Below are positions 22,481 to 24,980 of a stretch of 64,000 bases of DNA, piece after piece. Made by a program: the position numbers and the translations under genes. Position 1 is the first letter of the stretch. Every line of letters starts with the position of its first letter. The stretch covers positions 35,650,001 to 35,714,000 of the forward strand of contig OX597814.1 in NCBI GenBank assembly GCA_951406725.2, written 5' to 3'. A model generated the notes under the pieces. That model was not told the DNA's origin. It saw only the letters and a list, made by a program, of their open reading frames with translations, and searched no databases. This DNA comes from Octopus vulgaris (lineage: Eukaryota).

Positions 22481-22703
22481 TTAGTCAATTTAGTGTAGCA
22501 AAAAAATTCAATAGAAATTTATCGCTACCAGCGGCCTAGTGGAAAAGAGAAAATAGTCAACGACTAAATATATAAATATAACAATTTAGGAGTGACCCTA
22601 ACAGGTCATTCGTCCACCAGAAAGAGCAGCCATAACTCACACCGCCAAGTAGTAGTAATTCAGAAATTAGGTGAAAATTTAAAAACATTTACCCTAATTC
22701 ATC

Positions 22704-22801
22704 TTTTAGACGATGCATCGTTTCTGTGTCATTAATGATTAAATTAGCTTAATTAAATTAAATTAAGCTAATCTACCATAGGTTACACTTCATCAGTAAA
22801 A
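22704..22801 (-). ncRNA. Type I hammerhead ribozyme (array copy 1)
   Basis: Reverse complement of 24761-24858. Confidence 0.8.
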
Positions 22802-23177
22802 AACCTGGGAGAGACAAATATACACGAGGCGTCTGTATCGATGCCTACGGAATATCTGTCTTAAAATTTTCAAGACTGACGTATTCGCACCAAACTTATC
22901 AGCAGAAAATATAAACTGCCGATTCAATCTCAGAATTATTCAGAAAATTATCAATTAGTCAATTTAGGGTAGCAAAAAAATTCAATAGAAATTTATCGCT
23001 ACCAGCGGCCTAGTGGAAAAGAGAAAATAGTCAACGACTAAATATATAAATATAACAATTTAGGAGTGACCCTAACAGGTCATTCGTCCACCAGAAAGAG
23101 CAGCCATAACTCACACCGCCAAGTAGTAGTAATTCAGAAATTAGGTGAAAATTTAAAAACATTTACCCTAATTCATC

Positions 23178-23275
23178 TTTTAGACGATGCATCGTTTCTG
23201 TGTCATTAATGATTAAATTAGCTTAATTAAATTAAATTAAGCTAATCTACCATAGGTTACACTTCATCAGTAAAA
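23178..23275 (-). ncRNA. Type I hammerhead ribozyme (array copy 2)
   Basis: Identical to copy 1. Confidence 0.8.
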
Positions 23276-23651
23276 AACCTGGGAGAGACAAATATACACG
23301 AGGCGTCTGTATCGATGCCTACGGAATATCTGTCTTAAAATTTTCAAGACTGACGTATTCGCGCCAAACTTATCAGCAGAAAATATAAACTGCCGATTCA
23401 ATCTCAGAATTATTCAGAAAATTATCAATTAGTCAATTTAGGGTAGCAAAAAAATTCAATAGAAATTTATCGCTACCAGCGGCCTAGTGGAAAAGAGAAA
23501 ATAGTCAACGACTAAATATATAAATATAACAATTTAGGAGTGACCCTAACAGGTCATTCGTCCACCAGAAAGAGCAGCCATAACTCACACCGCCAAGTAG
23601 TAGTAATTCAGAAATTAGGTGAAAATTTAAAAACATTTACCCTAATTCATC

Positions 23652-23749
23652 TTTTAGACGATGCATCGTTTCTGTGTCATTAATGATTAAATTAGCTTAA
23701 TTAAATTAAATTAAGCTAATCTACCATAGGTTACACTTCATCAGTAAAA
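23652..23749 (-). ncRNA. Type I hammerhead ribozyme (array copy 3)
   Basis: Identical to copy 1. Confidence 0.8.
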
Positions 23750-23986
23750 AACCTGGGAGAGACAAATATACACGAGGCGTCTGTATCGATTCAATAGAAA
23801 TTTATCGCTACCAGCGGCCTAGTGGAAAAGAGAAAATAGTCAACGACTAAATATATAAATATAACAATTTAGGAGTGACCCTAACAGGTCATTCGTCCAC
23901 CAGAAAGAGCAGCCATAACTCACACCGCCAAGTAGTAGTAATTCAGAAATTAGGTGAAAATTTAAAAACATTTACCCTAATTCATC

Positions 23987-24084
23987 TTTTAGACGATGCA
24001 TCGTTTCTGTGTCATTAATGATTAAATTAGCTTAATTAAATTAAATTAAGCTAATCTACCATAGGTTACACTTCATCAGTAAAA
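23987..24084 (-). ncRNA. Type I hammerhead ribozyme (array copy 4)
   Basis: Identical to copy 1. Confidence 0.8.
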
Positions 24085-24460
24085 AACCTGGGAGAGACAA
24101 ATATACACGAGGCGTCTGTATCGATGCCTACGGAATATCTGTCTTAAAATTTTCAAGACTGACGTATTCGCGCCAAACTTATCAGCAGAAAATATAAACT
24201 GCCGATTCAATCTCAGAATTATTCAGAAAATTATCAATTAGTCAATTTAGGGTAGCAAAAAAATTCAATAGAAATTTATCGCTACCAGCGGCCTAGTGGA
24301 AAAGAGAAAATAGTCAACGACTAAATATATAAATATAACAATTTAGGAGTGACCCTAACAGGTCATTCGTCCACCAGAAAGAGCAGCCATAACTCACACC
24401 GCCAAGTAGTAGTAATTCAGAAATTAGGTGAAAATTTAAAAACATTTACCCTAATTCATC

Positions 24461-24558
24461 TTTTAGACGATGCATCGTTTCTGTGTCATTAATGATTAAA
24501 TTAGCTTAATTAAATTAAATTAAGCTAATCTACCATAGGTTACACTTCATCAGTAAAA
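24461..24558 (-). ncRNA. Type I hammerhead ribozyme (array copy 5)
   Basis: Identical to copy 1. Confidence 0.8.
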
Positions 24559-24564
24559 ACCTGG

Positions 24565-24980
24565 GATAAATTTCTATTGAATTTTTTTGCTACCCTAAAT
24601 TGACTAATTGATAATTTTCTGAATAATTCTGAGATTGAATCGGCAGTTTATATTTTCTGCTGATAAGTTTGGCGCGAATACGTCAGTCTTGAAAATTTTA
24701 AGACAGATATTCCGTAGGCATCGATACAGACGCCTCGTGTATATTTGTCTCTCCCAGGTTTTTTACTGATGAAGTGTAACCTATGGTAGATTAGCTTAAT
24801 TTAATTTAATTAAGCTAATTTAATCATTAATGACACAGAAACGATGCATCGTCTAAAAGATGAATTAGGGTAAATGTTTTTAAATTTTCACCTAATTTCT
24901 GAATTACTACTACTTGGCGGTGTGAGTTATGGCTGCTCTTTCTGGTGGACGAATGACCTGTTAGGGTCACTCCTAAATTG
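24565..24980 (+). repeat. Inverted partial copy of the 474-bp unit
   Basis: From 24565 (gataaatttctattgaatttttttgc) the sequence is the reverse complement of the unit; it ends at (TA)n. Confidence 0.9.
24761..24858 (+). ncRNA. Type I hammerhead ribozyme (inverted copy)
   Basis: tttta CTGATGA (24766-24772) a gtgt...[attagcttaatt/aattaagctaat hairpin]...acac a GAAAC (24838-24842) gatgcatc GTC (24851-24853) taaaa; helix I tttta/taaaa; 12-nt palindrome acgatgcatcgt. Confidence 0.85.

Follow-up and report, generated by a model that had tools for sequence, protein, structure and literature searches.

The 2502-bp hammerhead array lying between two long (TA)n tracts of the 64-kb window (the whole stretch of DNA analysed here) is most probably a non-autonomous hammerhead retroelement that entered (TA)n in one very recent insertion, by target-primed reverse transcription with the enzymes of a Penelope-like element (PLE) acting in trans. 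The class of element is already known and this family is a new member of it: judged from its sequence, the array belongs to the animal non-LTR retrozymes, with an RNA predicted to cut itself. The ends of the array look like the work of PLE enzymes, a proposed helper of retrozymes. PLE mobilisation of retrozymes and a circular template have so far been put forward on the basis of co-occurrence and shared ribozymes (PMC7229834; 10.64898/2026.07.22.740005), and according to the second of these sources the mechanism of retrozyme mobilisation has yet to be demonstrated. Because the present family is young, homogeneous and high in copy number, and its junctions are clean, both the PLE helper and the circular template become testable. 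The distribution of start sites among loci, together with the way variants are arranged in arrays, would separate a circle from a linear multimer, while a candidate clade for the helper is suggested by the (TA)n target.

Architecture of the array

Every position of the array was mapped onto one unit, U, defined as window positions 22954-23427 (474 bp), with U1 at 22480 in the first copy, and this mapping yields three segments. Segment A (22480-23790, minus strand; 2.77 units) extends from an RNA-sense 3' end at 22480 (U1) to a 5' truncation at 23790 (U363 of the third copy). It is followed, at a junction from U363 to U27 (23789-23790) where 139 nt are skipped with a 2-nt AT microhomology and a local period of 335, by segment B (23789-24566, minus strand; 1.64 units), which extends from a 3' end at 23789 (U27) to a 5' truncation at 24566 (U331 of the next copy) and lacks one A at 24555-24559. 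At the strand-switch junction (24565-24566), U331 is joined 5'-to-5' with U44 through a 2-nt GA microhomology, and segment C (24565-24981, plus strand) is an inverted 0.88 unit that runs from U44 down to U1 and then from U474 down to U102. Tandem Repeats Finder returned the 474-bp period over 22480-23790 and the 335-bp period across the internal junction. The forward part of the array measures 2087 bp, or 4.40 units head-to-tail. Exactly three differences among the units occur in the 2502 bp, namely two substitutions in segment A (T for G at 22494; A for G at 22889, in a CpG) and the missing A of segment B.

The left (TA)n tract (22278-22481; ~204 bp), the presumed target, has an AT in common with the first bases of the element, and the right tract (24981-25150) is about 170 bp long. 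Flanked by (TA)n at either end, the array has no definable target-site duplication, as the repeats would mask one; in non-LTR retrozymes such duplications, when present, exceed 4 bp. No LTR arrangement was seen in the array, and the window contains no N. The sequence-only reading had described ~4.4 head-to-tail lengths of a 474-bp unit, five minus-strand hammerheads and a sixth on the plus strand, about three differing positions (22494, 22889 and an A-run near 24555), a deletion junction at ~23790 and a strand switch at 24565, all between two long (TA)n tracts; this account of the structure is confirmed and proved exact.

The hammerhead ribozymes

The six hammerheads, located by motif, are all of type I, with the core intact in 6/6 copies. 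On the minus strand they occupy 22701-22804, 23175-23278, 23649-23752, 23984-24087 and 24460-24559, with CUGAUGA cores that start at 22796, 23270, 23744, 24079 and 24553 and GUC triplets that end, and would be cut, after 22709, 23183, 23657, 23992 and 24466, respectively; the inverted copy on the plus strand (24758-24861) has its core start at 24766 and its GUC cleavage after 24853. Each is ordered as helix I (8 bp), CUGAUGA, an extra A, helix II, a further extra A, GAAA, helix III and GUC, helix I of the fifth copy having only 6 bp because one base is missing. Helix II has 4 bp and runs on into a long AU-rich hairpin, for a total of 65 nt, with an extra A on each side, and helix III is a 12-nt palindrome, as had been recognised earlier. 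Non-standard bases at the foot of hammerhead helix II are described in PMC3088659, and the extra A before G12 is an atypical feature. Rfam at gathering score gave 0 matches in the whole window, hence no hammerhead match, and at E<=10 over 22400-23500 it gave 15 unrelated weak matches, none of them to a ribozyme family; the identification as hammerheads therefore depends on the motif, supported by covariation with a diverged sibling of the unit.

The sibling lies at a separate locus (62676-63224, plus strand; period 465, 1.18 units), has its own hammerhead at 62931 and is an ORF-free circular permutation of the unit. Local alignment of the two scored 189.5 against 77.3 +/- 9.1 (maximum 106.5) for 200 shuffles, with ~70% identity over the aligned columns on both sides of the ribozyme (153/221 and 116/165). 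As MAFFT misaligned the two ribozymes, their helices were compared by anchoring on the core: half of the 12 helix pairs (6/12) have changed on both sides and yet remain paired, 5 are identical in the two ribozymes and the last is A.A against A-U, and helix III of the sibling is a different near-palindrome. These compensatory changes indicate that the ribozyme fold has been conserved while the sequence drifts. Among variants in contigs from sequencing runs, changes listed inside CUGAUGA fall only at the free position 7, which is too weak to count as core conservation. The sibling is older than the 474-bp unit of the array.

In a two-ribozyme RNA, helix III was predicted to form between copies with pair probabilities of 0.74-1.0 and helix I to form across copies with probabilities of 0.22-0.28, whereas single-copy helix III and helix I were each predicted at a probability of 0.0; the earlier suggestion of dimeric folding through the palindromic helix III is in line with this prediction. 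In the monomer circle, the active fold would cost 4.5 kcal/mol, and C3-U4 is predicted to be paired with a probability of 0.98. Under this folding model, which has no tertiary contacts, the predictions fit an RNA that is cut as a multimer and stable as a circle. The release of 474-nt monomers, also suggested previously, stands in part, since the cleavage positions predict products of 474, 335, 474 and 474 nt in order, that is, three of the expected length and one of 335 nt.

A probable family of animal non-LTR retrozymes

The unit is low in GC (33.8%), its longest stop-free frame is 55 aa and its longest Met-initiated frame 43 aa; an endless ORF on a 474-nt circle, a length divisible by 3, was considered and rejected, as stops occur in all six frames. 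Its folding z is -5.4, with 0/100 shuffles as good, and 65% of its bases are predicted to be paired as a circle. At least half of the unit's words were found in 20/24 listed runs, which come from 8 studies and three coded organisms and of which none is on record as RNA. Contig sets from 4 of these 20 runs (X1, X3, X6 and X13) were compared with one unit length (22894-23367), which was covered in all 30 bins in 4/4 sets. In X6, a run of 1,859 million letters, four zero-difference contigs occur at a depth of 758-818 and the wrap-around joint has a depth of 760, indicating that the exact sequence of the window is an abundant form and is continuous round the circle; the head-to-tail continuity of the unit stands in independent runs. 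If the genome is 0.5 Gb or larger, an assumed size, the family has at least about 200 copies. The missing A of segment B is also listed in X13. The U363-U27 joint and the strand switch are listed in none of the 4 contig sets, in which rare forms are dropped and some records filtered. No (TA)n-joined loose end at U1 occurs among 21 of the 88 loose ends, leaving one dominant fixed end unsupported, and among the X6 entries listed there is no high-depth exit from the unit into other sequence. A pattern common to unit and sibling found 10 loci in metagenomes, of which 0/10 were homologous, and 0 loci in viral sequences; these searches, each weak as a negative, gave no sign of a viroid-like or viral source of the unit.

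Several hallmarks of non-LTR retrozymes are present in the array, with a type I hammerhead in every unit, head-to-tail repeats of a few hundred bp, a non-coding sequence of below 50% GC, a monomer predicted to be highly self-paired and many copies in the genome. Non-LTR retrozymes were described by Cervera and de la Pena in 2020 as tandem low-GC repeats, with one type I hammerhead each, that are processed to circles and proposed to be copied by PLE enzymes (PMC7229834). The units in that work span 150-450 bp, and those reported by Li, Clavereau and Pollet in 2026, which were linked to PLE pLTRs, span 51-972 bp (10.64898/2026.07.22.740005); the 474-nt unit is slightly above the first range and inside the second. 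The present family resembles these elements in its tandem, non-coding, low-GC repeats with one type I hammerhead per unit, its self-paired monomer, its high copy number and the presence of PLEs in the same genome. It differs from those described in its long 12-nt palindromic helix III and in a helix II that carries a long insert and has an additional base at each side, and its monomer ribozyme is predicted to be partly blocked, which has been reported only for some mussel circles. The life cycle proposed in PMC7229834 is the model to which the sequence-only reading had come, having missed the publication. In the 2026 preprint, 1/9 predicted Xenopus retrozyme dimers cleaved and 8/9 did not. The literature search returned no description of this family or of retrozyme insertion junctions, and the consulted portions of PMC7229834 and 10.64898/2026.07.22.740005 describe no such junctions; the supplements of the two papers may list the family.

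Insertion anatomy

Taking the ribozyme strand as RNA sense, both outer ends of the array are element 3' ends that sit on (TA)n, and the two orientations meet 5'-to-5'. The 3' ends of segment A (U1), segment B (U27) and the sibling (about U1-U9) cluster. That of segment C maps to U86-102: it stops at U102, next to an AT-rich stretch of the unit itself (U86-101) that is similar to the (TA)n target and in which the sibling's other end falls as well. The chance that at least 2 of the 3 further ends would fall within 26 nt of U1 is about 0.035, computed post hoc. The insertion ends lie ~229 nt from the cleavage site (U230/229), none falls at it and segment A crosses three cleavage sites, which argues that the template was not a cleaved linear monomer. 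Both substitutions fall in the first lap, a placement required by neither a circular nor a multimeric template; a circle and an uncleaved multimer fit equally well, at about even odds. A single recent insertion made by rolling-circle reverse transcription had been claimed for the array: one very young insertion by reverse transcription with template jumps is supported, and rolling-circle copying is inseparable from the copying of an uncleaved multimer. The near-identity of the units is by itself insufficient as proof of one event, because in an independent run it is this very sequence that the family shows at high depth.

PLE insertions, as described by Craig et al. in 2021 (PMC8557442), target microsatellites and are arranged as partial tandems, with a 5'-truncated copy in inverted orientation at the 5' end and with two 3' ends set apart by a tail of 30-40 bp; nearly all Hydra-clade PLEs insert into (TA)n. 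On AT-rich DNA, a purified PLE protein nicks both strands and extends them. It initiates within the RNA, the tail being defined by two neighbouring start sites, and has no need for ribozyme cleavage (PMC11167929). The array has the same partial tandem with an inverted 5'-truncated copy at its 5' end. The U363-U27 junction may be read as the 5' end of segment A joined to the 3' end of segment B, with a tail-like offset of 26 nt between 3' ends (U1 and U27) at this one locus. By comparison with the published anatomy, what had been called a deletion and an inversion appear to match PLE insertions instead of random template jumps; jumps as such are supported, and it is their random character that gives way to a standard PLE anatomy (PMC8557442). 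The array is like the insertions of endonuclease-bearing PLEs, notably those of the Hydra clade, and of the non-autonomous Chlamys elements in its partial tandems, its inverted 5'-truncated 5' copy, its (TA)n target with no readable target-site duplication and its non-autonomous, multicopy head-to-tail form, and perhaps in its tail-like offset (PMC8557442). It is unlike the PLE insertions described there in having no ORF and no detected similarity to the one PLE of the window, in an offset of 26 nt and in an inverted copy that ends 75-100 nt from the other 3' ends. Several observations count against the favoured reading: the 3' end of segment C (U86-102) lies outside the U1-U27 cluster, the 26-nt offset is shorter than the described 30-40-bp tail, the unit has no detected sequence in common with the neighbouring PLE, in whose 3' region no hammerhead was found, and neither internal junction is listed in the 4 contig sets. 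The atypical extra A before G12, the lack of an Rfam match and the 8/9 Xenopus dimers that did not cleave weigh on the same side.

The unit, the ribozyme motif, the junctions, the membership in a family and the flanks are shown by the data. Beyond these, under the favoured reading, arrays would be transcribed on the ribozyme strand, and neighbouring hammerheads, paired by way of their palindromic helix III, would release monomers of 474 nt, whereas a lone monomer or circle would be stable through being largely misfolded. Both strands of the target would be nicked by a PLE protein directed at (TA)n, with the Hydra clade as its likeliest origin. Priming by one strand would occur inside the RNA close to U1, at a distance of about 229 nt from the cleavage site, and would lead to the copying of 2.77 units, the same cDNA passing three cleavage sites before it re-starts at U27 and copies 1.64 units more, while the other strand would prime at the AT-rich U86-102 and copy 0.88 unit; the two cDNAs would then join 5'-to-5' through a 2-nt microhomology. 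A bolder reading, less likely than not, is that a Hydra-clade PLE copied a retrozyme circle from a fixed internal start (U1-U27) opposite the ribozyme cut, made more than two laps, re-started at the second site and met a second cDNA primed from the other (TA)n strand; the start site would then be one that the ~70%-identical subfamily has kept. If true, this fixed-start reading would mean that the junctions themselves directly attest both the proposed helper and a circular template, and that the family is young enough to be active today.

The neighbouring PLE

Beyond the right (TA)n tract, as a separate insertion, lies a 5'-truncated Hydra-like PLE fragment (25147-26173, plus strand) with a thumb and a GIY-YIG-type endonuclease. 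Its reading frame changes near 25.2 kb. In a full HMMER scan, its last 133 residues had 2165 relatives at E<=0.001, whereas a word-index search for longer proteins with the fragment gave 0/195 candidates. One homolog (P0063), which aligns at E 9e-20, has RT motifs and DKT, and another (P0036) has CxCx5C. Pfam assigned 0 families to the neighbouring ORF, and 1/8 of the homologs showed a weak GIY-YIG match, below the cut-off. Two traits agree with the Hydra clade, an endonuclease with no CCHH and with CxxC and CxH around conserved E and N, and insertion into (TA)n. The CxCx5C linker, RT domain and hammerhead of that clade are lacking in this copy; a long Ser/Asn-rich sequence replaces the linker, much as in P0002 and P0003, which are closely related to it, and the 3' region of the PLE yielded no hammerhead. 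In view of the 5' truncation, the replaced linker and the missing hammerhead, the element is named Hydra-like only. No sequence common to the unit and the neighbouring PLE was detected. The PLE is a candidate for the kind of helper envisaged, showing only that such enzymes have acted in this genome. The longer Hydra-like stretch (25147-27013, plus strand) sits between two (TA)n tracts, and by eye there is an imperfect internal duplication in it at about 26390-26570.

Alternative explanations

An origin at the DNA level, in which a shorter retrozyme insertion was amplified by unequal exchange or slippage into a minisatellite and in which microhomology-mediated repair, or template switching during replication, produced the deletion and inversion between fragile (TA)n tracts, is unlikely, both for the amplification and for the rearrangements. 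Every junction shows only about 2 nt of microhomology and long (TA)n lies on both sides, as such an origin would have it, and local tandem amplification is favoured in 10.64898/2026.07.22.740005; it does not, however, predict that the inversion should be 5'-to-5' and leave an element 3' end at each flank, or that 3' ends in two subfamilies should gather near U1, and with just three differences in 2502 bp there was hardly time for a series of distinct events. It is very unlikely, too, that the array is the pseudo-LTR run of an autonomous PLE of which the ORF is missing here, there being no independent retrozyme family. The hammerheads of PLE pLTRs described by Cervera and de la Pena in 2014 (PMC4209133) are of type I, with an extra base between 9 and 10.1, G10.1-C11.1 and a palindromic helix III for dimer folding, all of which the unit shares, and opposite-strand ribozyme pairs lie 100-700 bp apart there and 213 bp apart in the array; moreover, 21 PLE matches were reported for 24 of 57 Xenopus retrozyme families (10.64898/2026.07.22.740005). 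Unlike the pLTR hammerheads of that account, the unit has a helix III long enough for 4 bp as a monomer and a second extra base before G12. Against a pseudo-LTR origin, the unit has no ORF in or beside it and no junction to RT and GIY-YIG sequence within the window, the adjacent PLE stands across a (TA)n tract and shares no sequence with it, the X6 depth is even round the circle with no high-depth exit among the entries listed, and the sibling too is an ORF-free circular permutation.

Similarly improbable is an assembly or library artefact, in which the unit is real and the copy number, deletion or inversion at this locus is not. Both junctions are unlisted in 4/4 contig sets, PLE structures of this sort are known to trouble assemblies (PMC8557442), and the copies might have been made uniform when the assembly was polished against so abundant a family, yet the 2-nt overlaps at both junctions are too short for an assembler to invent, the window has its (TA)n tracts resolved and is free of N, and head-to-tail continuity holds in independent runs. 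Segment C does not mirror segment B, and the flank into which it leads is another one, a geometry that rules out a mirror fold-back chimera.

Other features in the window

An unrelated hammerhead repeat forms a dimer at 11405-11787 (minus strand), with a spacing of 269 and (TCTA)n and (ACAT)n inside the period. Its hammerheads have the same extra A on both sides of helix II, an 8-nt palindromic helix III and a GUA site, and each copy opens on the plus strand with 7 bases identical to U1-7. A hammerhead-like motif at 52790-52860 (plus strand; core at 52800) has a 10-nt palindromic helix III and a weak helix II, and may be due to chance or decay. Fragments of dispersed repeats are clustered in the region 59479-63724. 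Two of them, at 62442-62676 and 63515-63724, form a pair (88% over 235 columns), with further matches at 59479-59642, 60349-60501, 61126-61270 and 30805-30976; this pair was considered as the target-site duplication of the sibling and rejected, as it belongs to a dispersed repeat family. Tandem repeats were also recorded at 42983-43278 (149 bp, 2 copies, 96%), 46785-46919 (26 bp, 5.2 copies, 95%) and 58604-58882 (66 bp, 4.2 copies, 72%). Right after a (TA)n/(TG)n tract, the stretch at 27358-27560 looks, by eye, tRNA-like and SINE-like.
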